DNA from: an uncultured Actinomycetota bacterium
GTDB taxonomy: Bacteria > Actinomycetota > Actinomycetes > Mycobacteriales > CAVVZQ01
NCBI GenBank assembly: GCA_963752715.1
Contig: CAVVZQ010000008.1
Span: 49,524-113,523, forward strand
Direction: 5' to 3'
Length of the DNA: 64,000 nucleotides
The number at the start of each line of letters is the position of its first letter. Position 1 is the stretch's first letter. The notes beneath the pieces were generated by a model, which saw nothing but the letters and a program-made list of their open reading frames with translations, did no database searches and had not been told where the DNA came from. Both the position numbers and the translations under genes were made by a program. Positions 1,772-57,354 of this stretch are shown here, one piece after another.

Positions 1772-2268
1772 ATGACGAGCACCCCCGATGGCGGGGACCG
1801 TGACCTGGAAGGAACCCAGCCGCAGCCTTCCGGCGACCAGCCGACGTACGGGAGTCCGCCGCCACCGCCGTACGGGACCCGCACGCCACCGCCGTACGGG
1901 ACCCCGCCACCGCCGTACGGGACAGAGCCGGCTCCGTACGGGACCCCGCCAGCTCGCCGTACGGGACCCCGCCGCCCTACGCAACCGGGCCCGGCCCGCA
2001 GTACCGCTACGCCCCCGCCCAGCGGACCAGCAACGGACTCGCCATCTCGGGACTCATCAGCGGCATCGCCGGGTTGATCCTGTTCGGGGTGATCCTGGGG
2101 CCGCTGGCGATCGCGCTGGGCTGGATGGGGCTGCGCAAGGCGAGGACCCTGCCGGACCGCAGAGGCGAGACGATGTCGAAGTGGGCGATGGGGCTCGGTA
2201 TCGCCGCGACGGTGTTTGCCGTCATGGTGTTCGGTCTGTTTCTGAGCGACCCGTCCGGGGTGCTGTAG
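1772..2268 (+). pseudogene. DUF4190-type membrane protein with Pro-rich PPYG repeats, interrupted by a 1-nt frameshift near 1949-1956
   Basis: Frame 2 from ATG 1772 reads MTSTPDGG...PPPPPYGTRTPPPYGTPPPPYGTEPAPYGTPPA. The sense then continues only in frame 1: SPYGTPPPYATGPGPQYRYAPAQRTSNGLAISGLISGIAGLILFGVILGPLAIALGWMGLRKA...(stop 2268). Frame 1 has no start codon between its stop at 1801 and the TM domain. Confidence 0.6.
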
Positions 2269-2377
2269 CAGTTCCGCGCGCCCACTCGGTCCAGGCACGG
2301 AGCCCGTCTACCGCCTGGTGTCGGAATGGGTCAGGAGGCGCTCGGGGAAGGGGCTGGGGAAGGGCTCGGCAGGTGTG

Positions 2378-2995
2378 ATGCGCAACAGCGCGGTGTTCCT
2401 GTGGCGCGACCGCGCGCTGTTCCTCGGCGACCGGTCCACCACCGCCGTCCACAGCCACTACGCCTGCGAGATCAGCGTCGCGCTCGACGACCTCGGCCTC
2501 ACCAGCGCGGTTGCGGACGGACCCACGCTGCACGGCGTTCCCGGGGCCGTCGTTGCCTCCGCCACCCCCCACTCCCTGGACATCCCGGGGGAGAAGGTCG
2601 CGGTGTTCTACCTGGACCCGGCCGGTCACGACGGCGTGAGCGTGCAGGCCTGGCTGGACCGGCGGCCCTGCGCCGCGCTCCCCGACGGTGCTGCCCGAGC
2701 CGTACGGCCGAGCCTGCTGGAGCTGTTCGAGCGCCGTACCGGGCTCGAGGACGCCTCGCGGGCCTGCGCCGCCCTGGTGGGATCGCTCACGACGGGTACC
2801 CGGCGCAGTCCTGCCCGAGGGCGGCTCGACCCACGGGTCGAGCAGGTTGTGGCCCTGATGGAGGCACGGCTGGACCAGCCACCGTCCTTGGCGGAAGCGG
2901 CTGCCGCGGTGAGCCTGTCGCCGACGCGGCTGCGGCAGCTGTTCTCCGAGCAGGTGGGAGTGCCGATGCTCGTACGAGCCGCCGCCGGGGCATGA
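2378..2995 (+). CDS. AraC-family transcriptional regulator, second helix-turn-helix missing (probable pseudogene)
   Basis: Cupin-like N-terminal part, then SLAEAAAAVSLSPTRLRQLFSEQVGVP (first AraC HTH), then a stop 9 codons later. An out-of-frame MRYRMTLGLRVR follows at 2997-3060 and resembles the expected RRYRLWLRL continuation. Confidence 0.6.
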   Translation: MRNSAVFLWRDRALFLGDRSTTAVHSHYACEISVALDDLGLTSAVADGPTLHGVPGAVVASATPHSLDIPGEKVAVFYLDPAGHDGVSVQAWLDRRPCAALPDGAARAVRPSLLELFERRTGLEDASRACAALVGSLTTGTRRSPARGRLDPRVEQVVALMEARLDQPPSLAEAAAAVSLSPTRLRQLFSEQVGVPMLVRAAAGA

Positions 2996-3177
2996 CGATG
3001 AGGTACCGGATGACGTTGGGGTTGCGGGTGAGGTGCAGGGTGACGGTGAGGGTGAGGTAGCGGCCCGTCAGGGGCGGTAGGTGTCCGCGACACACACCGG
3101 GCGCCGTGCTGGCCGTGCAGGCCGAGACTGCCACGTTCGGGGTGTCCGTCGCGGGGCAGTCAGGCCTGACGGCTGAC

Positions 3178-5112: not shown

Positions 5113-5115
5113 GGC

Positions 5116-13409: not shown

Positions 13410-13917
13410 CTACAGGCCCAGGCCGGAGAGTGTGTTGGCGAGCTCCCCGCGCGCCCGCTCCCGGGAGGACGTCGCGTCGGCGGCGTCGGCAGCCCGCGTG
13501 GCCAGGCGACGGCACTCGGTGAGGCTGGTCCGGGCCAGCACGGCGGCGACCCCGCGGATCGCGCGGGGCGTCATGGACAAGCTGGTCCCCCTCAGGCCGA
13601 CCAATACGACGGCCAGGGCGGGGTCCGCGGCTGCCTCACCACACACCCCGATTGGTCGACCCCGTGCTGCCGCTCCCCGGCAGGCGATCCGGACCAGCCG
13701 CAGCACCGCGGGCTGCCAGGGATCCCAGGGCGGGGTTGGCCTCTGCGCCGAGCGGGAGGAACGGCAGCGGCTTGTCCGCTCCCGCGTCCAGGGTGCGGAT
13801 GACCACCGTGCGGTGCGGGAAGGCGGCCAGCGACGGGATCACCTCAGTTCCGTAGCCGGGCTCCAGGGCATGCAGCGGCGGTCGGCCCTGCTGCCTCGGA
13901 ACGAGCACCAACCGCAC
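13410..13917 (-). pseudogene. ptsI: Relic of PTS enzyme I (PEP-protein phosphotransferase, PtsI)
   Basis: Two frames carry PtsI-like pieces: VVIRTLDAGADKPLPFLPLGAEANPALG and IGVCGEAAADPALAVVLVGLRGTSLSMTPRAI. The N-terminal half and the central catalytic segment are absent. Confidence 0.7.
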
Positions 13918-14033
13918 GACCCAAGAGCCGTGCCGACACTCCCGAGCAGGGGCGCTCCGTGCTCATCGGAGCGCTGTCCTAAGGTTCTGCATGCGACAGG
14001 ACGGATGACGTGCCCACGCATGGAGGAGACGGG

Positions 14034-19524: not shown

Positions 19525-20384
19525 TCACAGCTTGGCTGCCTCGCGGAGCCGCTGCCGGCTCTGGTCCAGCAGGGCGGCGTCGGCGTTGAAGCCCTGTGCC
19601 GCCTGGGCGAGGCGTTGCTGGTCGCCGGTCGCCATTGCGGTGGCCAGCGTGTCCAGGGACGTACGGTAGCCGTCGGTAGCGTTCCGTAGCAGCCCTGCCG
19701 CTTCACGCAGCGACGTCTCCGCCGCTCCCGACTCCAGGGTCAGCAGCTCGTCGGTGGCCGAGGTGATCCGCTGGTCGATCAGCGCCCAGCGACGGGCCAG
19801 CTCGGAGTCGGTGTCGCGCTGGGCAGCGGGCAGGCCCAGCTGCTGGCTGCGCCATCGTAGGAGAGGGTCGTCGACCTGGCTGCGTACCCACGTGAGCTGC
19901 CCCTCGGCCCGTGAGGCGAGCTGCGCGGTCGGGGCTGGAGCCCCGGCCACGCAGCGCCCCGATGAGACCCGCGACCAGGGCGACACCGACGGCTCCGAGG
20001 AAGATCCATAGCCAGTACCGCGGGGTTCCCTCCTCGTCGTCGGCGGCGGCGGCGGCCGGGTCCGTGGGATCCGGCGTGGCCTCCGGCGTGGCCTCCGGTG
20101 TCGGTTCGGGGCTCGGCTGCGGAGTCGGCTCCGGCTGCTCCGGTTCGGTCGTCGTGTCAGGCGTGGACGGGTGTGGACGCAGGTGTGGACGTGGGTGTGG
20201 ATGTGGGGGTGGAGGCAGGAGTGGATGGTGCTGCCTGAGGGCGGTCGCTTCCGCTCGCTTCCGGGGCCAGGGACTCGATCGCGGAGGAGAGGGCATCTCC
20301 GACTGTGCTGTCCTCGCCACAGGCCGTCATCAGCAGCCCTGCTGCGGCGAGGCCAGCCAGGGGAAGGGCAAGGGAGCGACGCAT
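19525..20384 (-). pseudogene. Lipoprotein / single-pass membrane protein reading through three frames (two frameshifts)
   Basis: Frame A: MRRSLALPLAGLAAAGLLMTAC (lipobox) ...STPTSTPAS. Frame B: PDTTTEPEQPEPTPQ...RYWLWIFLGAVGVALVAGLIGAL (TM). Frame C: APAPTAQLASRAEGQLTWVRSQVDD...RLREAAKL. Each segment has high GC3 only in its own frame. Junctions lie near 20160-20175 and 19937-19950. Confidence 0.55.
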
Positions 20385-27279: not shown

Positions 27280-27312
27280 GGCCTGGTCGCGGTACAGGTC
27301 AAGGGCGGGTCG

Positions 27313-27760
27313 GTGTGGCACGACGGCGCCCGGTGGCTGCAGGCGTGGTCGGAGCAGGGCCAGCGTCGGATCGACCCGGTCGGTCAGGAGTTCGACCTGC
27401 CGGACTGCCCGCGCCACATGGTGGTCGATCGCAGTCAGCTGACGTCCGTCGCCTCCGGCCTGCGGGAGACGGCCGAGCTGCAGGGGCAGGGCTACCGACC
27501 GCCCGACAGCCAGGACGTGGACCTGCTGGCCGAGATCATGCGGGGCCGCGGCCTACCCCAGCGTGACGTGGTTGCGCTGGCGCTGGACCGTGAGACGCGG
27601 GGGGATCTCCTGACCGCGGAGCAGGCCAACGTGCTCGGGGCGACCAGACTGCTGCGTCGGGTAGAGGTGCGGGGCGGTGCCGGCAGCGGCAAGACGTGGC
27701 TCGCGGTGGAACAGGCACGTCGCCTCGCCCGCGACGGCGAGCGGGTGGCCCTGACCGGGC
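27313..27760 (+). pseudogene. N-terminal relic of a UvrD-like P-loop helicase/ATPase
   Basis: LTAEQANVLGATRLLRRVEVRGGAGSGKTWLAVEQARRLARDGERVAL (Walker A). Meaningful sequence stops about 27757. The rest of track ORF 27313..27894 is Arg-rich read-through into the antitoxin region. Confidence 0.65.
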
Positions 27761-27791
27761 TTCTGAGGCGCGAGGATCGAGCTCGTTCTCA

Positions 27792-27820
27792 TGTACAAGA
27801 AGGGCGATGGGTTGTACGCT
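27792..27820 (+). promoter_or_regulatory. Putative TA operator/promoter: TGTACA core, inverted repeat GTACAA-N13-TTGTAC, and a -10-like TACGCT
   Basis: Read directly. TACGCT (27815-27820) lies 6 nt before ATG 27827, consistent with a leaderless antitoxin transcript. Confidence 0.5.
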
Positions 27821-27826
27821 TTCAGC

Positions 27827-29498: not shown

Positions 29499-31373
29499 AT
29501 GACTGCTTCTGCTCACACGTCGTCGGCGAACCAGGCGCTGCTGGGGGTGCTGCCGTTCGAGGACGAGTCTGACTTCGCCGATGCGCGGCGGGGGTTCATC
29601 GCCGACACCCCGCACCGGGTGATCACGAACCCGGACGGCAGCCCGTCGTTCGACCTGGACGCGTACGAGTTCGTGCGGGACGCCCCGGCTCCGGACACGG
29701 TGAACCCGAGCCTGTGGCGGCAGTGCCAGCTGCTGGGCATCACGGGGCTGTTCGAGGTGGTGGACGGGATCTACCAGGTGCGCAACGTCGACCTGGCGGT
29801 GATGTCGTTCATCCGCGGGCAGACCGGGTGGATCGTGGTGGACCCGCTCGTGACCGCGGCGCCGGCGGCGGAGGCGTTGCGGCTGCTGCGCGAGCACGTA
29901 GCGGACCTGCCGGTGAGCGCGGTGCTGTCCACGCACTCGCACGCGGACCATTTCGGTGGGATCGAGGGGGTGGCCGACCGGGCCGACGTGGAGGCGGCAC
30001 GGGTGCGGTACGTGGTGCCGGCCGGTTTCGTGGAGGAGTCGGTGTCGGAGAACGTGCTGGCCGGCAACGTGATGGCTCGCCGTGCGTCGTACATGTACGG
30101 CAACGCCGTCCCCCCGGGGCCGGAGGGGGCGGTGGGGGCCGGGCTGGGTCCGTCGACGAGCACCGGGTCGATGGCGCTATACCCGCCGACCGACATCGTC
30201 GACCACACCGGGCAGGAGCTCGACATCGACGGGGTGCGGTTCATCTTCCAGCACACCCCGGGTGCGGAGGCCCCGGCGGAGTACTGCTTCTACCTGCCCG
30301 ACCAGGCCGCGTTGTGCATGGCCGAGATCGCCTCCCACACCCTGCACAACGTCTACACCCTGCGTGGGGCGAAGATGCGGGACGCGCTGACGTGGTCCAA
30401 GCACATCCACGAGGCGTTGCGGCTGTTCGGCGACCGAGCGCAGGTGCTGTTCGCCTCGCACCACTGGCCCACCTGGGGCAACGAGGCACTGCGCGCCCAG
30501 CTGGTCGGGCAACGCGACCTGTACCGGTACCTGCACGACCAGACGCTGCGGCTGGCCAACCACGGTCACGGCCCGAGCGAGATCGCCGAGATGATCGAGC
30601 TGCCCGCCGGCATCGCGGGTCGGTTCGCCAACCGCGGCTACTACGGCAGCGTCAACCACAACGTCAAGGCCGTCTACAACTACTACCTGGGCTGGTTCGA
30701 CGCCAACCCGGCGAACCTGCACCCGCTGCCGCCCGAACCGGCCGGGCGCAAGTTCGTCGAGTACGCCGGCGGCGCCGAGGCGCTGCTGGCGCGGGCCCGC
30801 GCCGACTTCGAGGCCGGGGACTACCGGTGGGTGGCCGAGGCGGTCAACCACCTCGTGTTCGCCGACCCGGACAACGCCGACGCGAAGACCCTGCTGGCCG
30901 ACACGTACGAGCAGCTGGCGTACCAGGCCGAGTCGGGGCCGTGGCGCAACTTCTACCTCGCCGGCGCCACCGAGCTGCGGCACGGCATCCGCCCCGTGGC
31001 GACACCGAACGCCGCCCAACCAGGCATGGTGTCCTCGATGCCGGTCGCCACCGTCCTCGACGCCCTCGCCGTGCGCCTGGACGGGTCCGCCGTCGCCGAC
31101 GTGCACGCCACCATCGGATTCGCCGTCGACGACGACACCCACACCCTGGAGCTGTCCAACGGCACCCTGCACCACCACCCCGGCACCGACCCGAACACGG
31201 CAGCGACCATCCGGATGACCCGCGCGGCGCTGGACGCCATGGTCATGGGACACGACCTCCAGCAACTCGTCGCCGACGGCTCGATCACCCTCGACGGCGA
31301 CCTGTCCGCCGTCCAGGCGCTGCTGGCCAACCTCGACACCTTCGAGTTCTGGTTCCCCATCGTCACCCCGTGA
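29499..31373 (+). CDS. Alkyl/aryl-sulfatase, MBL fold (SdsA1/BDS1-like) with an SCP2-like C-terminus
   Basis: AGGAGG lies 5 nt before ATG 29499. THSHADHFGG, a dimerisation region, and a C-terminal DTFEFWFPIVTP. Confidence 0.85.
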   Translation: MTASAHTSSANQALLGVLPFEDESDFADARRGFIADTPHRVITNPDGSPSFDLDAYEFVRDAPAPDTVNPSLWRQCQLLGITGLFEVVDGIYQVRNVDLAVMSFIRGQTGWIVVDPLVTAAPAAEALRLLREHVADLPVSAVLSTHSHADHFGGIEGVADRADVEAARVRYVVPAGFVEESVSENVLAGNVMARRASYMYGNAVPPGPEGAVGAGLGPSTSTGSMALYPPTDIVDHTGQELDIDGVRFIFQHTPGAEAPAEYCFYLPDQAALCMAEIASHTLHNVYTLRGAKMRDALTWSKHIHEALRLFGDRAQVLFASHHWPTWGNEALRAQLVGQRDLYRYLHDQTLRLANHGHGPSEIAEMIELPAGIAGRFANRGYYGSVNHNVKAVYNYYLGWFDANPANLHPLPPEPAGRKFVEYAGGAEALLARARADFEAGDYRWVAEAVNHLVFADPDNADAKTLLADTYEQLAYQAESGPWRNFYLAGATELRHGIRPVATPNAAQPGMVSSMPVATVLDALAVRLDGSAVADVHATIGFAVDDDTHTLELSNGTLHHHPGTDPNTAATIRMTRAALDAMVMGHDLQQLVADGSITLDGDLSAVQALLANLDTFEFWFPIVTP

Positions 31374-32077
31374 CCGCGAACTCGGGCCAGGGCCGCGGCG
31401 CGCCTGAGTCGGGGTGGCGGCGACACGCGACCTCGATCGAGGTGGCCGCGGTGGCCGGCCTGGTGAGCGGAGTCGGGTGGATCGTCTCGCTGCGCGGCCT
31501 GCTGGCCGGTCCCGGCCTGGACGCCACCCGCGCAGAGATCGCGACCTTCTACACCGCCCCCGGAGCGGCCGGGCCCACCGGCGTCTACCTCGTCGTGCTG
31601 GTGGTCTCGACGCTGGCGTTCCTGTGGTTCGTCGGCGTGGTGCGCAGCCGACTGGGCCCGGCGGAGAGCCCGATGGTGGGCACCGTGTTCCTCGGCGGCT
31701 CGGTGGTGATGGCCGGGCTGCTGCTCGTCGGCGCCGCCGCCGTGGCCGCGCCGGCATTCCTGCTCGACGCCGGCGGCCAGGTCCCTGACCCGGGGGCCGC
31801 CCAGCTGGCCCGGGCCTTCGGCCTGATCATCCTGGTGGTGTTCACCCCCCGGGTGGCCACGCTCATCATGTTCACCTCGGCGACGCTGAGCCGGCAGGCC
31901 CGCGCGCTGCCGGGGTGGATGATCGTGCTCACCTACCTGGTCGGAGTGGTGGAGTTCGTCACCGTCACCGTCGCCGAACCCGTCCTCTACGTCTTCCCCG
32001 CCTGGGTCACGCTGGCGTCCACCGTGCTGCTCCCGCGCCACGACCGGATACCCACGCGGGGCTCAGCGCACACCTGA
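31370..32077 (+). CDS. Hypothetical membrane protein (about 6 TM)
   Basis: GTG 31370 overlaps the sulfatase stop (GTGA). Hydrophobic throughout. Confidence 0.55.
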   Translation: MTANSGQGRGAPESGWRRHATSIEVAAVAGLVSGVGWIVSLRGLLAGPGLDATRAEIATFYTAPGAAGPTGVYLVVLVVSTLAFLWFVGVVRSRLGPAESPMVGTVFLGGSVVMAGLLLVGAAAVAAPAFLLDAGGQVPDPGAAQLARAFGLIILVVFTPRVATLIMFTSATLSRQARALPGWMIVLTYLVGVVEFVTVTVAEPVLYVFPAWVTLASTVLLPRHDRIPTRGSAHT

Positions 32078-32130
32078 CACCGTGACAGCGCAGACGCACA
32101 CTGCGCGCGCCGCGCCACCGGGGAGACGGG

Positions 32131-33402
32131 TCAGCCTGAGGCGTCGTCGGGTGGGTGGTCGGCGACCCAGCGCTGCGCGTCCCGATAGGCCCGCAGCAGC
32201 GTCGCACCGACCCGCTCGTCCCCGGGGTAGACACTCGACGAGCCGATCACCTCGGTCACCCCGGTCGCGGCCAGCTGCTCGCGGATGCGTTCGCCGGCCG
32301 AGACGATCACCAGCCTCGAACCGACCTGGTCCAGCGCCTGGGCGTAGCGCAGCAGGACGTCCATGAACGTCGTCCCCAGGTCCGTCCGGCCCCGCAGGCG
32401 CAGGATCACCACCGACCGAGCCGAGCGGTCGGTGACCACCGGGAGGGCCTTCTCGAACACCGGTGCGGCGGCGAAGAACAGGCTGCCGTAAGGCTGCAGC
32501 ACCACCACCTGCGACCCGGGGAGCTCGGCGGGCGGGTCGACCTCGACCGGGTGGGCATCGTCATCGTAGACCCGGCGCCTGATGCGGATCTGGTTGGACT
32601 GACGGACCACGTACAGCACCACCGACAGGGCCACCCCGGCCAGGACCGCGTACTGAAGCGGGATGAGCATCGTCAGCACGAACGTGACGACCAGCACCGC
32701 CTTCTGCACGTTCCCGGTCCGCCACACCGACTGCAGGTTCGCCAGGAATCAGGATCAGCAGCCGGCGCGCCGCAGCCGGGCCGCTACGGCGGCCGAGGAC
32801 GTCGCCCGGCTGACCACCGGCACCCGGGTGCGCTGGAACGCCACGATGAGCCCGACCGTCACGACCCCGACCGCGACACTCGCCCAGCTCAGCGAACCCG
32901 GCGACAGCACCGTGTCGACCGCGCGCGTCACCCGGTTCGCGCCCGCCGCGTCGTACCCGGTCAGATTTCCCAGCTGCCCGAGCACGATGTTCACCCCCAC
33001 CGCGTTGATGAAGCCCACCATCACCGCGTTGGACACGAACCGCAGCACCGACCCGGCGCGCAGCAGCCCCGCCAGACCCATCACCACACCCGTGAGCACC
33101 GCCAGGGTGAACAACGCACGCCCGGAGTCCGACGCTCCGTGCACCGCCGGAACGTCGGAGATGATCATGGCCATCGCACCCGTGGCCGTGACGACCATGA
33201 ACGTCGACGAGGTCACCGCCGCCCCGGCCACGGCGCCGACCATGTACGCGTACAGACCGGCCAACGGGTTCACACCGGCCAGCAGGCCCGCCGCCAGCCC
33301 GTCCGGCACGCTCTGCACACCCAGCACCACACCCGCCACACCGTCACGGCGTGCCGTCCGCCACGGCGGCAGCACCCACCGCCCCCGCGACGTACCGCTC
33401 AC
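32131..33402 (-). pseudogene. SulP family anion transporter relic, central TM core deleted
   Basis: The N-terminal piece (track ORF 32755..33534) reads PPWRTARRDGVAGVVLGVQSVPDGLAAGLLAGVNP...IVAFQRTR. The C-terminal piece (32131..32727) reads WRTGNVQKAVLVVTFVLTML followed by a STAS domain. Only about 30 nt separate them, and they are in different frames. Confidence 0.7.
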
Positions 33403-33564
33403 AGCCGGCCCCGCCGTCGGATCACACCCGGAAGTATCACAGCCACACAGCACACACGGGCTCGGGAGCAGACAGCGGGACGACTCCGACACCAAGCGCC
33501 GCCACCCGCGCCAGCCTCGTCGGAATGTCCGCAAAGATCACCCGCATATCAAGCAGGTTCGTGA

Positions 33565-33879
33565 AACGGCGGTCGGCTCGCCCGGCGGGCTCGGGGTCAT
33601 CCCGAGCAGGCCGCCCGGCAGGAGTCCGGCCAGGATCTCTACTGGCAGTCCTTCTGGGACACCGAGCAGGTCTTCTACGGCCATGTGCTGGGCTTCAAGG
33701 GCATGGAGCGCCGCGCGGTGGTCCTCGCGCTGAACGAGAAGCGTCCGCGGGAGCGGGCTCGGGAGCGCCTGTATGTGGGAATGTCCCGGGCCCGTGACCA
33801 GCTCGTCGTGGTGGGCGACGAGGCGTACGTAGAACAGGTCGCCGGGCCGAGCGTGCTGCGCCGGCTCCGGGAGGGATAG
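33565..33879 (+). pseudogene. C-terminal relic of the UvrD-like helicase/ATPase
   Basis: The frame is open from 33565: YWQSFWDTEQVFYGHVLGFKGMERRAVVLALNEKRPRERARERLYVGMSRARDQLVVVGDEAYV (UvrD_C-type end). No plausible start or N-terminal domains. Confidence 0.65.
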
Positions 33880-37064: not shown

Positions 37065-37067
37065 CCG

Positions 37068-37956
37068 GTGCTGGTGCCGCTGGCGGTGGGCGGAGCGCTG
37101 CTGGGCGGCGCCGCCGTGGGGCTTCTGCTCGGGCTGCTGGGCGGCGGCGGATCGGTCCTGACGGTTCCGATCCTGGTGTACGGGTTCGACGTTCCGGCGT
37201 ACGCGGCGACGAGCGTGTCGCTGGTGGTCGTGGGCGTGGCCGCGCTTGTCGGAGCGGTCGCCCACGACCGGGCCGGACGCATCCGCAGGTGGGACGCGGC
37301 CCTGTTCGTGGTTCTCGGTGCCCCCGGTGCCTGGCTGGGCGTCCAGCTTGCGGGAAGCGTGCCCGAGCGGGTGCTGCTCGGCGCCTTCGCGGTCCTCATG
37401 GCCGTCTCCGCGGCCGGGATGTGGGCGCGGGCGCGCCGGTCCAGCCCCCCGCCCGGTGACCCCGACCGGGCCGACCGGGCCGAGCGACCGGGCCGACATG
37501 GCCGACCTAGCCGGCCCCGCCGCCGCGGTGGCCACCGCGCTGTCGTGCCCGCTGTGGTCCCGATGCTGGCAGCTGAAGCTGGCGCGCACGGTCGCGGCGG
37601 CTCTCGCGGTGGGGCTGCTCACCGGGTTCCTCGGAGTCGGCGGCGGCTTTCTCGTCGTGCCCGCCCTGGTGACCGCGGTCGGCGTTCCCATGAGGTCGGC
37701 GGTCGGCACGAGCCTGGCAGTGATCAGCGGGAATGCCGCGCTCGCGCTGGGACTGCGGGCGATGGGCCCCGGGCTGCTGCTCGACGCCGAGGACGTGGGT
37801 GCCCTCGTCGCGGTGGTCGTGCCGTTCGTGCTGGCCGCTGTGGTGGGGACCCTGATCGGGTCGCGCCTGTCCGCCCGGGTACCGGCGCAGCGACTGACAC
37901 AGGCGTTCTCGGTTCTCTTCCTCGGGACCGCCGCCTACGTCCTCCTGTCCGCCTAG
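37068..37956 (+). pseudogene. TauE/SafE sulfite-exporter family permease, +1 frameshift near 37484
   Basis: The first half is in frame 0 (track ORF 37068..37982 up to ...GDPDRADRAE). The second half is only in frame 1 (track ORF 37246..37956: DRADMADLAGP...LLTGFLGVGGGFLVVPALV...). GC3 switches frame inside the repeat GACCGGGCC GACCGGGCC GAGC GACCGGGCC. Confidence 0.65.
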
Positions 37957-37982: not shown

Positions 37983-38645
37983 GACTCGGATCCAACGGGA
38001 CCGAGCGGGGCGGGTACGTCCCTGTACACCACCAAGTCCAAGTTCCAGTTCTTCGTCCGCACCTGGAATCGCGACGGCCGTTCGGACGCCGTCGGCGCTG
38101 ACAACGGCTCAGCGAAGATCGACTCCTACCTGCTGGCCAGTGACGCGTCGCTGGTCCGGCGCGTCAAGGAGCGGCTGCTGTCTGCGCCGGACACCTTCAC
38201 GTTCCTGCACCTGGGTGGGCCTGATGCTGCCGGACACAAGTACGGCTTCGGCTCGGCACGGTACCGACAGGCGGTCCAGGCGACCGACAGGCAGGTTGGG
38301 ATCCTGCTCCGGACGATTGCCGGGAGCTCTCGGCTGCGCACGACCACCACCGTCATACTCACCTCCGATCATGGCGGCGTCGGACGCGGCCACGGCACGG
38401 CTGCTCGTCGGGTCAACTTCACGGTCCCCGTCATGGTGTGGGGTGCTGGCGTGGCCAAGGGACGCAACCTCTACGCCCTCAACTCCGACGACCGTCAACG
38501 TCCCGGTTCGCGTCGCATGGCCTCGTACGCGGGCCGCCAGCCGATCCGCAACGCCGAGGTCGCCAACCTGGCGACCGACCTTCTCGGTTGGCCGAGAGTG
38601 CCGGGCAGCCAGCTCAACGCCAATCAGTCTCTCGACGTCTCGTGA
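37983..38645 (+). pseudogene. 5'-truncated alkaline-phosphatase-superfamily nucleotide pyrophosphatase/phosphodiesterase
   Basis: The frame is open from the stop at 37980-37982: ...TFTFLHLGGPDAAGHKYGFGS...VILTSDHGG...VPVMVWGAGV...IRNAEVANLATDLLG. The N-terminal part of about 150 aa with the nucleophile motif is missing, and there is no start codon. Confidence 0.65.
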
Positions 38646-38745: not shown

Positions 38746-40080
38746 GTGAACAGGCTGACAGCCCCACGGGGCTCGGCCCTCCCCCGCAGACTGCTCATCT
38801 CCCTCATCGCCGTGGGCGTCCTTCTCGCCGCGCTGTCCACCGTCGTGGCTGACCGGCCGTCGACTGCTGCTTCCGAGGTGCGACTCGCGTTCGCGGGGGA
38901 CTTCGACGACACGTCCCAGACGACGTCGGTTCTCGACGCCATCAAGGGCGCCCAGCCGGATGCCGCATTCGCGCTCGGCGACCTCAGCTATAGCGACACC
39001 CAGAGCGAGTACGCCTGGTGCAGCTACGTCAAGGGCCGCCTGGGCTCGGCCTTCCCGTTCCAGCTCGTCGCGGGGAACCACGAGGACGAGAGCACCTCGA
39101 ACGGCACGGGTGGCTATATCAACAACTTCTCCGCGTGCCTGCCCAACCAGATCCCCGGGGCCGTCGGCGTCTACGGCCGCGAGTACTACGTGGACATGCC
39201 CTCCAGCGCTCCGCTGGTGCGCGTGGTGAACATCTCGCCGTCGATCGTGTTCGAGGACGGCACCTGGAACTACGCCTCGGGTGACGCGCACTACACCTGG
39301 ACGGCAGCGGCGATCGACGGGGCGCGGTCCGCCGGCATTCCGTGGGTGGTCGTGAACCTGCACTACAACTGCCTGTCCCCAGGGGGCTACTCCTGCGGGG
39401 TGAACAGCGATCTCGTCGCGCTGCTGCACCAGCGCAAGGTGGATCTGGTCTTCAACGGCCACGACCACTTCTACGCCCGCACCCACCAGCTCGCGCTGGG
39501 CTCCGGATGCCCGGCGATCGCGACAGGCGGGTTCGACGCCGACTGCGTGGCAGACAACGACGGTGACTTCGTGGCCGGGAACGGCACGGTGACCAGCGTC
39601 GTCGGCACCGCAGGGGTCGCCCTGCGCGACGTCAACGCCGGCGACCCCGAGGTTGGGTACTTCGCGTCCTTCTCGGGGGCGAACCGCAGTCCCAGCCACG
39701 GCTTCACCGACGTGCGCATCACCGATACGGAGATCTCGGCCCAGTTCACCGCGGCCACCGGCTCGCACTCCGACTCCTTCCGCATCACCAAGGGCTCCGG
39801 AGTTCCTCCCGCGCCGGTCGCGAACGACGACACGGCAAGCACCACCGTGGGTACGGCGGTAACGGTCAGCGCGCCCGGCGTTCTCGCCAACGACTCCGGC
39901 ACCGGCATCTCCGTCACCGGCAACACGACGCCGTCACACGGCACTGCGACCGTCAGCTCCAACGGCTCCTACACCTACGCACCGGCTGGTGGCTTCGAGG
40001 GAACCGACGCCTTCGACTACACGATCACCGACAGTCTCAGCAGGACCAGCACCGCAACTGTCGCGGTCACGGTGAGCTAG
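38746..40080 (+). CDS. Secreted metallophosphoesterase with a C-terminal cadherin/Ig-like domain
   Basis: GTG 38746, signal-anchor RRLLISLIAVGVLLAAL, GDLSY, AGNHE, FNGHDHFY, and a tail ANDDTASTTVGTAVTVSAPGVLANDSG...FDYTITD. Confidence 0.8.
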   Translation: MNRLTAPRGSALPRRLLISLIAVGVLLAALSTVVADRPSTAASEVRLAFAGDFDDTSQTTSVLDAIKGAQPDAAFALGDLSYSDTQSEYAWCSYVKGRLGSAFPFQLVAGNHEDESTSNGTGGYINNFSACLPNQIPGAVGVYGREYYVDMPSSAPLVRVVNISPSIVFEDGTWNYASGDAHYTWTAAAIDGARSAGIPWVVVNLHYNCLSPGGYSCGVNSDLVALLHQRKVDLVFNGHDHFYARTHQLALGSGCPAIATGGFDADCVADNDGDFVAGNGTVTSVVGTAGVALRDVNAGDPEVGYFASFSGANRSPSHGFTDVRITDTEISAQFTAATGSHSDSFRITKGSGVPPAPVANDDTASTTVGTAVTVSAPGVLANDSGTGISVTGNTTPSHGTATVSSNGSYTYAPAGGFEGTDAFDYTITDSLSRTSTATVAVTVS

Positions 40081-40088
40081 TCAGCCCC

Positions 40089-40388
40089 GTGGCGCAGGAC
40101 ACCGGCACATGTGCCCCGTCGGTGGTTTCCGGTCACTCCTACCGCGCCTCGGTCTGGTACCGATCGACGGCCCCGTCGCGGATCATCGCCTACTACCGTG
40201 ACTCCGGCGGGACGTGGCGGGTGTGGTTCGGTGGTCCCTGGCTGCCGGCGAGTGCCGGATGGGTACAGACGTCGCTCGACTCACCTGCGGTACCGGCCGG
40301 TGCCACGCACCTGTCGTACGGGCTGGCACTGTCCTCGGTCGGGACGCTGGTCACCGACGACTACGCGCTGACCGACCTTGGCCCATAG
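40089..40388 (+). pseudogene. Orphan C-terminal half of a jelly-roll/CBM-like domain
   Basis: 99-aa ORF with coding GC3 (GHSYRASVWYRS...YYRDSGGTWRVWFGG...VPAGATHLSYGLALSSVGTLVTDDYAL), starting 8 nt after the phosphoesterase stop in another frame. No N-terminal half and no signal peptide. Confidence 0.4.
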
Positions 40389-40655: not shown

Positions 40656-42564
40656 CTACGACGTCGCCGCGCGCTCCTCCGCGACGGGCTCCGAGGTGAG
40701 CTCGGAGAGGAACTGGCTGGCATACAGCTCGGCGTACACCCCGCCTCGTTCCAGCAGCTCCGCGTGACTGCCCTGCTCCACGATCGAGCCGTTGTCCATG
40801 ACCAGGATCGTGTCGGCGTCACGGATCGTGGACAGCCGGTGGGCGATGACGAAGCTGGTCCGGCCCCGCCGCAGCTCGGCCATGGCCCGCTGGATCAGCA
40901 CCTCGGTGCGGGTGTCCACCGAGCTCGTCGCCTCGTCGAGGATGAGGACAGGCCGGTCGGCGAGGAACGCCCGCGCGATCGTCATGAGCTGCTTCTCGCC
41001 TGCGGAGAGGTTGGAGGCGTCCTCGTCGAGCACGGTGTCGTACCCGTCGGGCAGCGTGCGCACGAAGTGGTCCACGTACGCCGCCCGGGCAGCCGCACAG
41101 ATCGCCTGCTCGTCGGGGCCAGCTGCGTCCTTGCCCAGCGTCCCCAGCGTCTGCGCCGTAGGCGATGTTGTCCCGGATCGTCCCCCCGAACAGCCAGGTG
41201 TCCTGGAGCACCATCGCGAAGGACCGTCGTACGTCGTCGCGGGTCATCGTGGCGGTGTCCACGCCGTCGAGCGTGATGCGCCCGGCATCGATGTCGTAGA
41301 ACCGCATCAGCAGGTTCACCAGCGTCGTCTTTCCCGCGCCGGTCGGGCCCACGATGGCGATCGTCTCGCCCGGCTCCACCACCAGGTCGAGGTCGTCGAT
41401 CAGCGGGCGGTCGGGCCGGTAGCGGAAGGAGACTCCCTCCAAGGTCACGCGACCGCGGACGGGGCCGACCCGGGCGGGCGCGATGGGGTCGGGCTTCTCG
41501 GGGGTGGCGTCCAGGACCGCGAAGACCCGCTCCGTGCTGGCCACGCCGGACTGCATGAGGTTGACCACGCTCGCGATCTGCGTGATCGGCATCGTGAACT
41601 GGCGCGAGTACTGGATGAAGGCCTGCACGTCGCCGATCGGCATCGTGCCGTTGGCCACCCGAACTCCCCCGACGACGCAGATGAGGACGTAGTTGAGGTT
41701 CCCCACGAAGTGCATCGCGGGCTGGATGATGCCCGAGATGAACTGGGCGCGGAAGCTGGACTGGAAGACCTGCTCGTTGACCTCGTCGAAGTCGGCGACG
41801 ACGCGGTCCTGCATGCCGAAGACCTTCACGAGGTCGTGGCCGGTGTAGGTCTCTTCGACGTGGCTGTTGAGCAGGCCGGTGGTACGCCACTGCGTGACGA
41901 AGTGTGGCTGCGACCGCCGCGCGATGGCCATGGTGACCACGAACGACAGCGGCACGGTGAGCAGCGAGATCACCGCCAGCAGGGGCGAGATCCAGAACAT
42001 CATGACCAGGACGCCGACGACGGTCAGCACGGAGTTGACCAGCTGGGCGGCGATCTGCTGCATGGTCGTGGAGATGTTGTCCAGGTCGTTGGTCACCCGG
42101 CTGAGCAGATCCCCCCGCTCGCTGGAGTCGAAGTAGCGCAGCGGCAGACGGCCCAGCGTGGTCTCCACATCCTCCCGCAGCGCGTACATGGCCCGCTGCA
42201 CGATGCCCGCCACCAGGTAGGCCTGCGCCCACGCGAACAGCGAGCTGAACAGGTAGACCATGGCGACCAGCGCCGCCTGCTGGGCCAGCGCGGCAACATC
42301 CACCCCGCTGCCCCCGACGACGCCGTCGTAGATGAGTGTCGTCGCGTCACCGAGCAGCTTGGGGCCGAGCACCGCGAGGGCGACGCTGACCGAGGCCAGC
42401 GCGAGCACGCTGAGCAGCCAGGGCCGCTCCGGCTCGAGCCGCCGGCCGAGCCGGCGGACCGTGGGCCCGAAGCTCTGCGGCTTCTCCACGGGCATTGCCA
42501 GTCCCGACATCGGCCCACCGCCCAGGGGACCGCGGACCGGGGGCCGCGGGCGGGAGTCGCTCAC
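40656..42564 (-). pseudogene. ABC exporter permease/ATPase fusion (second subunit), frameshifted near 41119-41154
   Basis: GTG 42564 overlaps the upstream stop. The TMD and Walker A GPTGAGKTT are in one frame. The signature and Walker B ([32 protein letters not shown]) appear only in track ORF 40656..41075. The junction lies in a CCAGC(T)GCGTC near-repeat. Confidence 0.7.
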
Positions 42565-44298
42565 GTCGCCTCCTCCGCGGTCAGCTGGGACAGGACGATC
42601 TCCCGATAGGTCTCGCAGGTGTCCATCAGCTCGTGGTGCCTGCCGGAACCGACCAGCCGTCCGCCGTCGAGCACCACGATGCGGTCGGCATGCATGATCG
42701 TGGCCACCCGCTGGGCGACCACGATGACGGTCGCCCGTGAGGTTCGCTGTCGCAGGGCGGCGCGCAGCCGAGCATCGGTGGCGTAGTCGAGCGCGGAGAA
42801 GCTGTCGTCGAAGACGTACACGTCCGGGTTGCGCACGATCGCGCGGGCGATCGCCAGCCGCTGCCGCTGACCGCCGGAGAAGTTGACTCCGCCCTGGTCG
42901 ACGGGCTCGTTGAGGCCCTCCGGGCAGGGCCCGTACGAAGTCCGCTGCCTGGGCGACCTCCAGAGCCGCCCACAGATCCTCGTCGGAGGCGTCCGACCGC
43001 CCCACCCGCAGGTTGCTCGCGACCGTACCGCCGAACAGAAAGGCCCGCTGCGGGACCAGACCGATGCGCGACCACAGGTCGAGCCGGGACATCTCCCGTA
43101 CGTCGACGCCGTCCACCAGCACGGATCCGCCGGTCACGTCGTACAGCCGGGGGATGAGGTTCACCAGTGTCGACTTGCCTGAGCCGGTGGACCCCACGAC
43201 GGCGGTCGTCTGGCCGGGCTCGGCGGTGAGTGTCACGTCCACCAGCACGGACGCCTCCGCGCCCGGGTAGCGGAACTCCGCACCGCGCAGCTCCACCCGA
43301 CCGGCGGGCAGGTGCCTACCGGGGGAGCGGGGCACCGCCGGGTCGGAGAGCTCCGGGGTGACGTCCAGCACGGCCCGTACCCGCTCGGCGGAGGCGGCCG
43401 CCCGCGGGACCATCACGAACATCATCGTCGCCATCATCACGGCGAACAGGATCTGGGTCATGTACGTCAGGAACGCGGTCAGGTTGCCGATGGGCATCTC
43501 ACCGCTGTCCACCCGGAGCCCGCCGAACCAGATGATGGCCACGCTGGAAAGGTTCATGATCAGCATCAGCGCGGGCATCATCAGGGCGAACAGCCGGTTG
43601 ACGGTCAGCGCGGTCGCGGTGAGGTCGGCGTTGGCGGCGGCGAACCTCCGCTGCTCGGAGGAGGTGCGGACGAAGGCCCGGATCACCCGGATGCCGGTCA
43701 GCTGCTCCCGCATCACCCGGTTCACGGTGTCGATCTTGGACTGCATGGAGCGGAACTGCGGGATCGCACGGGAGACGATGGCACCGATCACGATCGCCAT
43801 CACCGGGATCACGATGACGAGCAGCCAGGCCAGCGTCGCATCCATCCGAACGGCCATGACGATGCCGCCGATAGCCATGATGGGCGCGGCGACCATCACG
43901 GTCAGCGCCATCATCAGGAACATCTGGATCTGCTGGACGTCGTTGGTGTTGCGAGTGATCAGGGAGTGGGTGCCGAAGGCGTTGACCTCGCGGTGGGAGA
44001 AGCCCTGCACGGTACGGAACAGCGAGCCGCGCACGTCGCGGCCGAACGCCATCGCGGTGCGGGCGCTGAAGTAGACGGCAACGATCGAGGCGACGCCGAC
44101 AGCGAGGGTGACGCCGAGCATCACGGAGCCGCGCTGCAGGATGTAGCCGGTGTCGCCGGTGACCACTCCGTTGTTGATGATCTGGGCGAAGAGGTCAGGC
44201 AGGTAGAGGTTGCCGAAGGCCTGCACGACCAGCAGTGCGATGACTGCCGCCAACGGCCCCTTGTACGGGGCCAGGAACGAGCGCAGGAGGACGGTCAT
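42561..44298 (-). pseudogene. ABC exporter permease/ATPase fusion (first subunit), frameshifted near 42916-42924
   Basis: The TMD and GSTGSGKST are in the 44298 frame up to ...FVRALPGG. The continuation GLNEPVDQGGVNFSGGQRQRLAIARAIVRNPDVYVFDDSFSALD is in the frame of track ORF 42561..42836. One extra G sits in CCCGGAGGG. Confidence 0.7.
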
Positions 44299-44352: not shown

Positions 44353-45550
44353 TCAGTCGTCGCGGTCGGCTCGGCCATGAGCCTCGTCATCGTCCTCCCG
44401 CTCCTCGTCGGACCACCGGGATGCCCGCCACGGCCACTTCTTGCCCTTGGTCTCCTTGGTCAGCAGGAAGCGCTTCGTGTCGTCCTTCGTGGGCGAGCTC
44501 GTCCTGTTGGTCGGCGTGGCAGTCGTCGAGGCCGACTTCTCGGTGGGGGAGGCAGCTCCACTCGACGTCGGTCCGGGAGTCCGAGCCGGAGTCGGAGCCG
44601 AGGTATGTGCGGTGGGCTTCGGCGTCGGTGCGGGGGTACGCGTGGTGGGAACGACCGGTGTCGGGTTCGCGGACGCCGGGGTACGGCTCGGAGCGGGTGC
44701 CGGATCGTCCTGCGGGATGGACCGGATCGCGGACGGCTCAGGAATCGGGGCGGGCCGAGTCGCGGCCGTCGGGAACGGCTCGGGGATGGGGGCACCACCC
44801 GGGAAGGGGTTGGCCGCGGGTGCGGACCGGTCGACCCGCTCTCGTACCCCTACGGCTGCGGGGGCGCCGGCGTCCGCGGTAGGGGACGACCCGCTGGCGC
44901 CGCTGTCCGTCGTTGCCCTGGCAGTGATCGACTGGCTGGGTTCCCGCGTCGCTGCCTGAGACGTGCTCGCCGCACTTTGCCTGTGCCGTGCCCTGCTGCC
45001 CTGGTTGTCCGGCTTGTCCGGCCGTGACCGTGGCGCAACCGTCGGCGGGCATGCTGCTCTCGTCGAGGCGCCGGTAGAGCGCCTCCTTCTCGTGGGCACC
45101 GAAGCCGTCCCGGCTGTCGTAGCGGGCCACGGCGTATCCGTCGTTGATCATTGCCGCGCCCACGTCAGCCGCGCCGTCGCCGTCGTCGCCGTCGAGCACA
45201 AAGCGCAGGAAGCGACCCGAGTGGTCCGGGCTGTCGACCTTGCCGACGCTCGCGCTGAGCTGGACCACCTCGCCGGGCGCCAGAATCGCTGCCAGGTGCT
45301 CCGACGCGGCGCCGTAGCCACAGGTGCCACGGTCTGCGGCGTCGATGCCGATCAGGCGGACCCGGAACTGCTCCCCGTCCTCGTTCTGAACGTACAAGGA
45401 CTCGCCGTCGATGACGCGGACGACCCGGTAGTCCCCGTTGGCGTCGACGGACTGCTGACCAGGCACCACTCCCAGTCCCACCAGCGCCGCGGCTGACACG
45501 GCGACCGTGCCGATCACCACGGACGACGCGACCATGCTCGGATGCTGCAT
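44353..45550 (-). pseudogene. Membrane-anchored thermonuclease (SNase-like) with a Pro/Thr-rich acidic tail, probably frameshifted near 44880-44915
   Basis: The nuclease domain is in track ORF 44738..45550 (VVRVIDGESLYV...VRLIGIDAADRGTCGYG...GRFLRFV). The distal PTPVVPTTRTPAPTPKP...KRFLLTKETKGKKWPW...DEEREDDDE has coding GC3 only in the frame of ORF 44353..45099. Confidence 0.5.
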
Positions 45551-53466: not shown

Positions 53467-53473
53467 GGGCGGA

Positions 53474-54575: not shown

Positions 54576-55958
54576 TCATGAGAGTGGGCCGGCCACGAAG
54601 CCCTTGCGCTCGTACCCGAGGCGCGTCGCCGACCAGGCCACGCCCGACCGAGCCCGCTCGGGGGTCGCCCACAGCGGGCAGTTCCCGAGTGCTTCGCCGC
54701 CGAGCGGCAGTGCCGACACTCGCTCACGCTCGTGCTCCTGCAGCATCTCCCCCCAGAGCGGCTCGATGAGTTGGTAGGTGACCAGCCGCTCAAGGTCGTG
54801 GTAGGCGTCGAATCCGCGCGGTGTCAGCCGGTACGCGTCGTGCTCGCGGCGCACGAGGCCGCCTGCAACCAGCGGGGCAAGCACCGCTTCGGCCACGGCT
54901 GCGGGCCCGCGCCCGTACGACCGCTCCAGGCCCGGCACGTCAACGGCCCCTGCGTAGGCCTGCCAGAACCCGTCGTACGCCGCGCCGCCCCACCTGCCCA
55001 GGTGCATCCACCGGGCGACCGGTACTCGGCCCGCCTCGACCGAACGGCAGTAGGTCGCGACCCCGAAGTGGTTGACGAAGAAGTCGCGCCCCAGGTACGA
55101 GGAACTGCCCGCGCCCATGCCGAGGAAACGGCGCCGGGTGATCGAGGTGTACGACGGAGATCCGGACCGGTTGAACGTCCACACGGAGCGGCGCTCATAC
55201 CCCATCCGCAGTGCCATATCGGTCACCGCGTCGAGCACCTCATGCTCGCGGCGGCGGGCGTGGGACGCCTTCCCGAACGGCGTGTACCCGAACCTCATGA
55301 GCGGGTACGTGGAGACCTGGTCCACGCCACTGGCGAAGCAGGTGCGGACATCCGCCAGAAATGCCTCGCGCCACCCGCCGCGAGACCCGCGTATGTCGTC
55401 GAGCGCGACGTCGATGATCAGATCCACGTCCACGCAGCCGAAGCGCTCCCGCGCGTTCCGGACCGCCGCGAGACTGGTGGCCGCGTCGTGCGGGCGCCCG
55501 AGCCGTCGCAGCACGGCGTCGTGGAACGACTGTGCGCCGACGCTGACGGCCGTGAATCCGATCTCAGCGAGGCGGTCCAGCCGGTTCGGGGTGCCGTGGG
55601 TGGGAAGGACCTCGATGGCACGTTCCCCAGCCACCGGTATCCGCCCGACGATGTCGGCAAGCGCGTCGGGGTACAGCGTGGGCGTTCCGCCGCCGACGTA
55701 CAGGGAGGTGAATGGGCGTCGGGCCGGGCTGTGCAGCTTCCGGTTCCCGGCCGCGTACGCCTCGGCGTAGGCGTCGACCTCGGTGCGCAGCGATGCGAAG
55801 TAGCGACGGGCCAGGTCAGCCTCAGCCCGCACCTTGTTGTACGGGCAGAACGGGCAGATCCACTCGCAGAAGGGCACGTGCAGGTAGGCGCCCACGGGTT
55901 CGTCCGACGCCGCTACTACCCTTGCGGGGGTCAGGACCTCGTGCCCGTCGACCCTCAT
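54576..55958 (-). CDS. Radical SAM protein, HemN/HemW (coproporphyrinogen III oxidase-like) family
   Basis: HVPFCEWICPFCPY (CxxxCxxC), YVGGGTPT, GAQSF. Confidence 0.85.
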   Translation of the reverse strand: MRVDGHEVLTPARVVAASDEPVGAYLHVPFCEWICPFCPYNKVRAEADLARRYFASLRTEVDAYAEAYAAGNRKLHSPARRPFTSLYVGGGTPTLYPDALADIVGRIPVAGERAIEVLPTHGTPNRLDRLAEIGFTAVSVGAQSFHDAVLRRLGRPHDAATSLAAVRNARERFGCVDVDLIIDVALDDIRGSRGGWREAFLADVRTCFASGVDQVSTYPLMRFGYTPFGKASHARRREHEVLDAVTDMALRMGYERRSVWTFNRSGSPSYTSITRRRFLGMGAGSSSYLGRDFFVNHFGVATYCRSVEAGRVPVARWMHLGRWGGAAYDGFWQAYAGAVDVPGLERSYGRGPAAVAEAVLAPLVAGGLVRREHDAYRLTPRGFDAYHDLERLVTYQLIEPLWGEMLQEHERERVSALPLGGEALGNCPLWATPERARSGVAWSATRLGYERKGFVAGPLS

Positions 55959-56044
55959 GTCTCCAGTGTTCTCCTTGTGACGCGTCAGAGGGGTGTGTTG
56001 GGGTGAGGTGGTGCGAGGCTCGGAGCCGAGGCAGAATCCGGCAG

Positions 56045-56851
56045 GTGGCCCTCACCGTTCAGGTCGACGTTTCACTGTCCGTAGAGGTTCTCAAGCCTGG
56101 CCAGCTGGCCCTGTGCGTGGGGGCGGCCGCGGCCTCACCAACCGAGGGGGAGGCGCTGCAGGTCCTGGGCCCCGACGGGGCTGAGGTTGAGGTTCGGGAG
56201 GTACGAGCCGACAGCGGCCGAGCACACCTCGTCGATGTGCCCAGCCCGCAGGTGCACGTGGCCTACCGGGCCAGGGTTGATCTCGGCACACGGGACGCCG
56301 AGCCCGTCAGCGAGATCGAGGCTCTGGTGTACCGGCGGCCGAGCCGGTACTGCCCGTCGGACCGGCTCGCCGGGCTCGCCGCCGCAGAGTTCGGCTCGCT
56401 GGACCCGCGGGAGGCAGCGCTGGCTGTCGAGCGTTGGCTGCACGAGAAGCTGTCGTACGTCCCTGGCTCCACCGATGCCGCCGACGACGCCCTGCATCCG
56501 CTGCTGACCCGTACCGGCGTCTGTCGGGACTACGCCCACCTCGGCGTTACGCTGTGCCGCGCGCTCGGCCTCCCGGCCCGGTACACGGCGGTCTATGCCC
56601 CCGGCCTGAGTCCGATGGACTTCCACGCGGTGTTCGAGGCTGCGATCGACGGGCGGTGGTTCGTGTTCGACGGCACCCGACTGGCTCCTCGCCGCAGCTT
56701 GGCACGGATCGCGAGCGGAAGGGACGCGGTGGACACGGCATTTCTCACCCCGCTCAGCGCGGTCGTGGGGTCTGTGCAGCACGACGTGACCGCCACTACC
56801 TACCCTGACCTCCCGGTGGACGACCGAAGCACGCTCGTGGCGCTGGCCTAG
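56045..56851 (+). CDS. Transglutaminase-like cysteine protease family protein
   Basis: TRTGVCRDYAHL and MDFHAVFE (Cys-His core). The GTG start at 56045 is uncertain. Confidence 0.7.
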   Translation: MALTVQVDVSLSVEVLKPGQLALCVGAAAASPTEGEALQVLGPDGAEVEVREVRADSGRAHLVDVPSPQVHVAYRARVDLGTRDAEPVSEIEALVYRRPSRYCPSDRLAGLAAAEFGSLDPREAALAVERWLHEKLSYVPGSTDAADDALHPLLTRTGVCRDYAHLGVTLCRALGLPARYTAVYAPGLSPMDFHAVFEAAIDGRWFVFDGTRLAPRRSLARIASGRDAVDTAFLTPLSAVVGSVQHDVTATTYPDLPVDDRSTLVALA

Positions 56852-57354
56852 CCGGCAGCGATCGTAGCGCCGCTGGTATTGACTCTCACCGTGCCGTCCG
56901 AGCAGACACGATCGTGTCATGAGGGTGTCACCGCATCGGAGGATCCTGGTGACGACGAAGGTCGAGGACTTCGACCGCTGCGCCACATTGACCACCCGCG
57001 CACGATTCCGGTCGGGCTCCTCCCCGCGATCTTCTCGGTCCACACGGTGCCCGTCGCGATCGCCATGCTCGAGCCGCCCGGGTGGCGGCGCTCGTCGTCC
57101 TGAACCAGAACGGCCTGCCCTCGCTGTGGTGCTTCTGGGCAGCCTGCACCAGCATTTTCGTCGCGTGGTAGCGGCGCCGGCTGGGTGGCGACTACCGGGC
57201 CGGCATGCCTTGGCCCTGGCAAGCCTCCGTACCGATTTCGCCATCCCCTGCCCCGACATAGGGCAGGGGGGCGGAGGTCCGGCACGGGAGGGTGCGGCGT
57301 AGCCTCCCCCTCGGACACCCAGCCCGAGGGCCTGAAGACTAGGGGACGACGACG

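Follow-up and report, generated by a model that had tools for sequence, protein, structure and literature searches.

The disrupted genes in a 64,000-nucleotide stretch of an uncultured actinobacterial genome (positions 49524-113523 of contig C8, CAVVZQ010000008.1, of genome G000; this whole stretch is referred to as the window) are quite probably explained, for the most part, by insertion and deletion (indel) errors in a long-read consensus, accompanied by about five genuine, old gene relics, and not by genome decay of the lineage. On this view, the single-site frame changes would be indels left uncorrected when the consensus of a draft genome or metagenome-assembled genome (MAG) was built from long reads of the Nanopore type, and the organism's real genes would be intact at these sites. 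The five relics are old remnants originating from deletions and rearrangements; they are placed in a variable stretch (approximately 27-40 kb) which also encodes a toxin-antitoxin pair and whose sequence is unlike that of a 97%-identical relative. A technical origin of the frame changes and a long-read build of the assembly are considered most likely. An earlier note, made from the sequence of the window, had described an exceptional density of at least 12 disrupted loci and had interpreted it as relaxed selection or reductive evolution; results obtained within this study do not support reductive evolution.

The G000 genome comprises 2.93 Mb in 17 contigs (70% G+C, 95% complete). Its largest contigs are 606-648 kb in size, and the 16S gene is internal to the 606-kb contig. 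The 30 species-level comparison genomes belong to the same order only, none of them representing the family of G000. Judged from one helicase (78% amino-acid identity), the named genomes nearest to G000 are MAGs of uncultured actinobacteria from the Microflora Danica (MFD) project. Since raw lists of open reading frames (ORFs) are useless at 70% G+C, a codon model trained on G000 was applied, and the DNA was segmented by a Viterbi path through six frames and a non-coding state. A frame change was called wherever the coding signal moves to another frame of the same strand although the previous frame remains open for no less than another 60 nt; on simulated one-base indels, this caller showed a sensitivity of 38% and a median localisation error of 3 nt. 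Nonsense candidates were defined as in-frame stops with coding signal on both sides (sensitivity 49%). Finished genomes of the same order and of similar G+C content, namely G019 (1.2 Mb) and G004 (0.4 Mb), were used as controls. Gene boundaries and detours of the caller in low-complexity sequence account for a considerable part of the calls made ab initio; after filtering of detours, 83 calls were kept in G000 versus five in the control. Apparent frameshifts in infB were rejected as such a detour in low-complexity sequence, the ORF being open throughout.

In total, 130 frame-change candidates were detected in the 2.93 Mb of G000 (4.4 per 100 kb), compared to nine in the 1.2 Mb of G019 (0.75 per 100 kb) and none in the 0.4 Mb of G004; at the rate of finished genomes, approximately 22 candidates would be expected for G000. 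Relatives allowed a test of 13 calls; eight were confirmed by a single frame in the relative and the other five turned out to be gene boundaries. The number of true breaks in G000 is estimated at 200-290, corresponding to 4.6-6.2 per 64 kb, and about seven were seen in the window; at an expectation of 6.2, seven or more breaks occur with a probability of 0.43. Furthermore, frame-change density in 50-kb bins is close to a Poisson distribution (variance-to-mean ratio 1.3), the non-coding fraction of the window (9.6%) equals that of the genome, and the coding fraction amounts to 0.89-0.92 on all large G000 contigs and approximately 0.90 in the window. The window is not special in its number of frame changes. 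Disruptions of the kind listed previously are indeed present, but their density is not exceptional when compared to the genome-wide expectation.

Concerning the lesion spectrum, 35 nonsense candidates were found in G000, compared to 46 expected from the finished-genome rate, and an internal stop occurred in one of 352 conserved loci. Natural pseudogene sets contain approximately one nonsense mutation per two to four frameshifts; therefore, dozens of extra nonsense candidates would be expected if the breaks were real. The mixed lesion spectrum of pseudogene-rich genomes was not seen in G000, as judged from nonsense candidates and internal stops. Net insertions (52) exceeded net deletions (31). 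Indel sequencing error had been offered previously as an alternative explanation for the single-base frame changes, and the genome-wide, indel-only pattern supports it. The sole internal stop mentioned above is located at C7:317841-320561 beside mfd, in a conserved protein of 962 amino acids (aa), at alignment position 497 (...AESAQRTW*LAGTVG...); it may have arisen by genuine nonsense mutation or by an erroneous base substitution in the assembly.

Runs of at least five were present within 30 nt of 21.5% of the break sites, compared to 11.9% of background positions. Among the genome-wide break sites, no enrichment of a motif or k-mer, such as methylation-type errors would produce, remained after correction for multiple testing. 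The former impression that breaks fall mainly in G/C runs was accordingly not borne out. Natural slippage strongly favours runs, and the mild run association of the G000 breaks differs from it.

As a positive control, two MAGs of related lineages from the MFD pipeline, which is Nanopore-only and applies Flye followed by one Medaka round (PMC12313526), were analyzed in the same way. Frame-change candidates amounted to 4.0 per 100 kb in the MFD Nanopore MAG G031 and to 17.5 per 100 kb in G033, with nonsense candidates near background, and homology-confirmed frame splits in the two MFD MAGs amounted to 5 and 28 per 100 kb. The signature of G000 resembles that of the MFD Nanopore MAGs and not that of finished genomes. 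As a separate observation, about every third or fourth gene would be affected in G033 (MFD02840.bin.2.105, L191-L210), given its 17.5 candidates and approximately 28 confirmed splits per 100 kb, and false reports of broken genes are to be expected in large number from this public MAG.

Essential and conserved genes were not spared. Using one caller, break density was 4.76 per 100 kb in segments with homologues in the sampled relatives and 5.26 per 100 kb elsewhere, resulting in a conserved/other rate ratio of 0.91 (p = 0.75); in the class with at least 70% identity, the density was 7.3 per 100 kb. The dnaE1 gene encoding the replicative polymerase is split between the HHH_6 and OB-fold domains at C4:261285 of G000. 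Its only paralogue in G000 is 30% identical, and all homologues carry HHH_6 and the OB fold in a single chain; a near-identical relative spanning the dnaE1 junction was not found, the best one being 67% identical. Further split genes are argC (twice, at C2:232230 and C2:232533), purL, metH, priA, a gene for an FtsI-like penicillin-binding protein, serA, nadC, mfd, recG and hflX, and tag and lpqB were likewise among the frame-split genes. At each examined junction, the protein continues seamlessly into the new frame. In addition, DnaE matches in other assemblies (P0336, P0346 and P0350) were short C-terminal ORFs of 346-648 aa on contigs of 360 kb to 8.3 Mb, which suggests that artefactual frame splits of dnaE arise repeatedly in further long-read assemblies as well.

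Within the window, approximately seven single-site frame changes were identified, affecting the genes for the DUF4190 protein, the lipoprotein (two changes), the TauE/SafE exporter, both ABC exporter subunits and possibly the tail of a nuclease. The corresponding loci are as follows:

1772..2268, plus strand: DUF4190 membrane protein gene, net -1 frame change near 1950, within PPYG repeats
19525..20384, minus strand: lipoprotein gene, three frames used and hence two frame changes
37068..37956, plus strand: TauE/SafE exporter gene, frame change near 37485, in an array of 9-nt repeats (GACCGGGCC)
40656..42564, minus strand: ABC exporter subunit 2, frame change near 41133, in a Gly/Asp-rich insert following ...NIAYG
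42561..44298, minus strand: ABC exporter subunit 1, extra base at 42921 (CTGCCCGGAGGGCC)
44353..45550, minus strand: secreted SNase-like nuclease, catalytic domain intact, Pro/Thr-rich tail possibly in another frame from approximately 44900

In the first five of these genes, the disruptions reported previously proved to be frame changes that are present in the assembly. In the DUF4190 gene, the domain of that name (E = 4.5e-9) is read in frame +1, where no start codon is available, and the N-terminus consisting of Pro/Tyr/Gly repeats lies in frame +2; the junction reads CCGCCAGCTCGCCG. The lipoprotein gene distributes its parts over one frame each, namely a signal peptide with the lipobox LMTAC, a Pro/Thr linker with a transmembrane helix, and a helical Leu/Ala/Gln-rich C-terminal domain; its two junctions are situated near 19935 and 20170, at approximate positions. 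The thermonuclease had also been regarded as disrupted. Its SNase domain (a weak match, residues 63-157) is intact, and at most the low-complexity Pro/Thr tail, which was translated in both frames, shifts frame.

For TauE, positions 2-114 and 124-236 of the Pfam profile are matched in two separate frames. The central loop at 37440-37530 consists of 9-nt units (GACCGGGCC and variants thereof) encoding Asp-Arg-Ala. Compared to the 97%-identical relative L221, in which TauE is a single ORF of 282 aa, the array of the window is 40 nt longer. The array is therefore a repeat of variable length inside the species group.

The first ABC exporter subunit is intact at the protein level in three short-read metagenome contigs of 97% DNA identity, which read CTGCCT-GAGGGC or CTGCCT-GGAGGC at the site of the extra base. 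In the second subunit, the ABC_tran domain is divided between two frames; its 95%-identical homologue P0126 (638 aa) is intact, with the Gly/Asp insert read in frame, and at this position the window is shorter by 8 nt. This insert of approximately 9-12 residues directly follows NIAYG of the nucleotide-binding domain both in the window (41100-41160) and in L220 (2790-2840); it is lineage-specific and absent from typical family members. Two further interpretations of the exporter genes were considered and rejected. Breakage of both subunits at the same place, as by a programmed event or gene conversion, was discarded since the sites are approximately 20-25 residues apart and of different nature. 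A 25-nt insertion in the second subunit, beyond the reach of any base-caller, was dismissed because the same Gly/Asp insert is read in frame in the 95%-identical relative, where it has 8 nt more than in the window. The comparison with relatives provided intact orthologues for both exporter subunits and for TauE in 95-97% identical short-read contigs, whereas L221 diverges at the phosphodiesterase described below. The intact relatives imply that the breaks of the window are either very recent or unreal, and this comparison does not distinguish between the two.

In contrast to the single-site changes, the structural relics are genuine. They were recognized at five loci, where a large share of the conserved domain architecture is gone and unrecoverable in any frame: an AraC-type regulator, a phosphoenolpyruvate (PEP)-utilising enzyme, a NERD/SF1 helicase, a SulP permease and a phosphodiesterase. 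For these five, the former statement that the truncations are not base-calling artefacts holds. Their coordinates, together with those of the block separating the two helicase fragments, are given below:

2318..2995, plus strand: AraC-type regulator, 3'-truncated, ligand domain and first helix-turn-helix (HTH) half only
13410..13962, minus strand: PEP-utilising enzyme relic, C-terminal domain of the PtsI/PpdK type, PEP-utilizers_C match
27283..27774, plus strand: N-terminal fragment of a NERD/SF1 helicase, Walker A motif GAGSGKT
27791..33534, no strand assigned: 5.8-kb block separating the helicase fragments, with Pfam matches
32131..33534, minus strand: SulP anion permease relic, internal deletion of approximately 160 aa and an in-frame stop
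33565..33879, plus strand: C-terminal fragment (UvrD_C_2) of the same type of helicase
37983..38645, plus strand: fragment of an alkaline-phosphatase-superfamily phosphodiesterase, 5' part gone, no start codon

Translation of the AraC-type gene terminates with ...SLSPTRLRQLFSEQVGVPMLVRAAAGA*, the second HTH half is absent from every frame checked, and the Gly-rich 3' end of a convergent DUF2207 gene follows at the 3' side. The relic of the PEP-utilising enzyme covers positions 72-114 and 215-291 of the 293 positions of PEP-utilizers_C in two frames; its N-terminal domains are absent and its coding scores are weak. In the SulP relic, the first ORF matches Sulfate_transp positions 4-181 of 380 and the second one the STAS domain. 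Residues 199-359 of the 557-aa homologue from G019 are missing, and the matched parts are 55 nt apart.

The N-terminal helicase fragment corresponds to residues 59-254 of a 546-aa homologue (G049; E = 6e-48) with an internal gap of 47 aa, and the C-terminal fragment shares 66% identity with residues 455-544 of this homologue (E = 4e-38); intact NERD/SF1 helicase frames in relatives comprise 530-680 aa. The block between them encodes a Phd antitoxin (27791-28075), a ParE toxin (28066-28332), two unknown ORFs, an intact alkylsulfatase (29496-31373) and a further unknown ORF (31366-32077), followed by the SulP relic. The helicase ends around this block look like an insertion or rearrangement scar. 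Two other candidates in this part of the window were rejected: a frame-change call at 27278-28063 represents the gene boundary between the helicase fragment and the Phd antitoxin, and the region 22763-26649, considered as a split helicase, carries a complete P450 gene whose stop codon overlaps the start codon of the likewise intact DEAD/DUF3516 helicase gene behind it.

The phosphodiesterase fragment matches only positions 147-220 of the 342-position Phosphodiest profile, and its homologues reside in frames of 500-600 aa. Similarity to the 97%-identical relative L221 stops at approximately 38017, where the coding signal of the fragment starts, and the L221 DNA downstream of TauE was not found anywhere in G000; therefore, the truncation is a true structural difference. 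Among the relics, the comparison with a close relative covers this locus. Overall, the relics are ordinary and of the kind met in variable regions, beside toxin-antitoxin modules and rearrangement breakpoints.

Alternatively, the frame changes could be real and the lineage in a state of early genome-wide gene inactivation by relaxed selection or reductive evolution, with the window as one sample of it, as proposed previously. This explanation is regarded as unlikely. Breaks occur genome-wide with a conserved/other ratio of 0.91, i.e., with the same caller used throughout they are not depleted in conserved genes, and dnaE1, which has no close paralogue, is among the genes hit. The broken genes mfd, tag, recG, nadC, serA, argC and purL do belong to those repair and biosynthesis classes that shrinking genomes typically lose, genuine relics exist in the window, and both subunits of one ABC exporter as well as both sulfur-related transporters are affected. 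Moreover, some sites lie in repeats, in which natural slippage takes place, and the homology-based rate in conserved genes is possibly below the genome-wide estimate. Against real mutations speak the missing excess of nonsense candidates, a coding density of approximately 90-92%, the seamless protein across every junction, the prevalence of net insertions over deletions, which is contrary to the usual deletional bias, and the identical signature of Nanopore-only MAGs. It is very unlikely that the frame changes are real and that they stem from very early, indel-driven decay or from an indel-specific mutator defect (mfd, tag and recG being broken); an uncultured actinobacterium that is the sole member of its family would then have to live with its replicative polymerase split and with several auxotrophies. 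If real, the frame changes would make this genome a rare view of genome reduction at its start in an actinobacterium of free-living size; the evidence points in the opposite direction.

That the region itself is special, being an island of relaxed selection with a density of disrupted genes far above that of the remaining chromosome, is decidedly unlikely. The five relics within 64 kb, three or four of them within 27-39 kb beside the toxin-antitoxin pair, and the synteny breakpoint relative to the 97%-identical relative would fit such an island, but the approximately seven frame changes agree with the genome-wide 4.6-6.2 (seven or more having a probability of 0.43 at 6.2), the 50-kb bins are near Poisson (ratio 1.3), and the non-coding fraction of 9.6% equals the genome average. 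It is highly improbable that the repeat-associated changes (TauE array, PPYG repeats of the DUF4190 gene and Gly/Asp insert of the second ABC subunit) act as on/off contingency switches via slipped-strand mispairing. All three sites are located in short tandem repeats, and at two of them the repeats are not of the same length as in close relatives. Since the units are 9 nt or other multiples of three, a change in unit number keeps the frame and an extra one-base change would be needed; furthermore, break sites across the genome are not concentrated in repeats or homopolymers.

Several points weigh against consensus errors combined with old relics as the preferred explanation. The long-read origin of the assembly is deduced only from its contiguity and from the rRNA gene inside a large contig. 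The differences of 8 nt (shorter, second ABC subunit) and 40 nt (longer, TauE) to relatives both lie in repeats, and real slippage could yield such differences; the genuine relics show that some real decay exists in the window. Approximately 40% of the testable ab initio calls were gene boundaries (13 tested). Calls also cluster at short range, with 23 of 116 gaps below 1.5 kb compared to 7.5 expected, which is partly due to caller detours. Finally, reciprocal homology searches revealed four to five colinear frame splits in G000 versus three in G019, in approximately 180 kb each, and may leave room for up to two-fold fewer breaks in conserved genes. These tblastn counts are tiny and show no excess by themselves, and a split at a gene boundary cannot be assigned unambiguously to one of the two genomes; the reciprocal search was rejected as an independent measure of excess for these reasons.

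The three colinear splits of G019 against G000 proteins are located at 537150-538339, 858037-859639 and 902343-903529 (part coordinates; C1 = part + 200000). In this one-contig, "complete" genome, they may represent genuine pseudogenes or assembly errors, or else they may be due to fusions among the query genes.

The remaining loci of the window have weaker signals or are intact. Neighbouring housekeeping-like genes had been described as intact, and this was confirmed for the plsB-like glycerol-3-phosphate acyltransferase, PPK2 and others. Two further regions comprise loci that had been listed as disrupted:

38791..40388, plus strand: metallophosphoesterase with Big_9 (to 40080), Metallophos and Big_9 matches, followed by an ORF resembling a carbohydrate-binding module (CBM) in another frame (40089-40388)
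56848..57354, no strand assigned: stretch of 507 nt without coding signal (Viterbi non-coding), holding the ORF 56919-57103

The CBM-like ORF at 40089-40388 (99 aa) has no Pfam match, and its final 45 aa are 91% identical in the relative L220; likewise, no Pfam match was obtained for the ORF at 56919-57103. A sulfur-handling cluster at 35287-37956 encodes a rhodanese, a metallo-beta-lactamase-fold plus rhodanese protein (persulfide-dioxygenase-like) and TauE, an arrangement reminiscent of cst-type sulfide detoxification operons. Moreover, a 286-aa protein encoded at 20998-21858 consists only of a C-terminal GmrSD/HNH (DUF1524) nuclease domain and is devoid of the N-terminal DUF262 part that GmrSD restriction enzymes have.

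These results call for caution, as MAGs based on long reads only yield findings such as broken genes, split proteins, frameshifts in both subunits of one complex and phase-variable repeats. Noise of this kind can be told apart from real gene decay by a triage that does not require reads and consists of comparing the rates of frame changes and nonsense candidates, inspecting essential single-copy genes, for instance dnaE1, for breaks, and running the same caller on a finished relative.

Mycobacterium leprae and Leifsonia xyli represent pseudogene-rich genomes undergoing reductive evolution. G000 is similar to this type of genome in having many disrupted genes, including those for repair and biosynthesis, and some true relics of large deletions. 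It differs by its normal coding density, by the lack of a nonsense excess and by the hit in dnaE1; moreover, conserved genes do not show fewer breaks than other genes, and apart from the breaks the affected genes are undegraded. The relics of the window correspond to ordinary pseudogene relics in variable regions, with which they have in common extensive missing parts, a coding signal of low strength and a breakpoint with respect to a close relative.

Compared to Nanopore-only assemblies with residual indels, G000 deviates in that its sites are only mildly homopolymer-associated, whereas the classical Nanopore error is homopolymer-linked, and in that, at two sites of the window located in repeats, the difference to relatives amounts to 8 and 40 nt and not to one base. 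In other respects, G000 and such assemblies (Sereika et al. 2022, PMC9262707; PMC12313526) are alike: one-base frame changes occur genome-wide, essential genes are split into two ORFs with a seamless protein and without accompanying nonsense mutations, and contiguity is high, with rRNA genes located inside large contigs.

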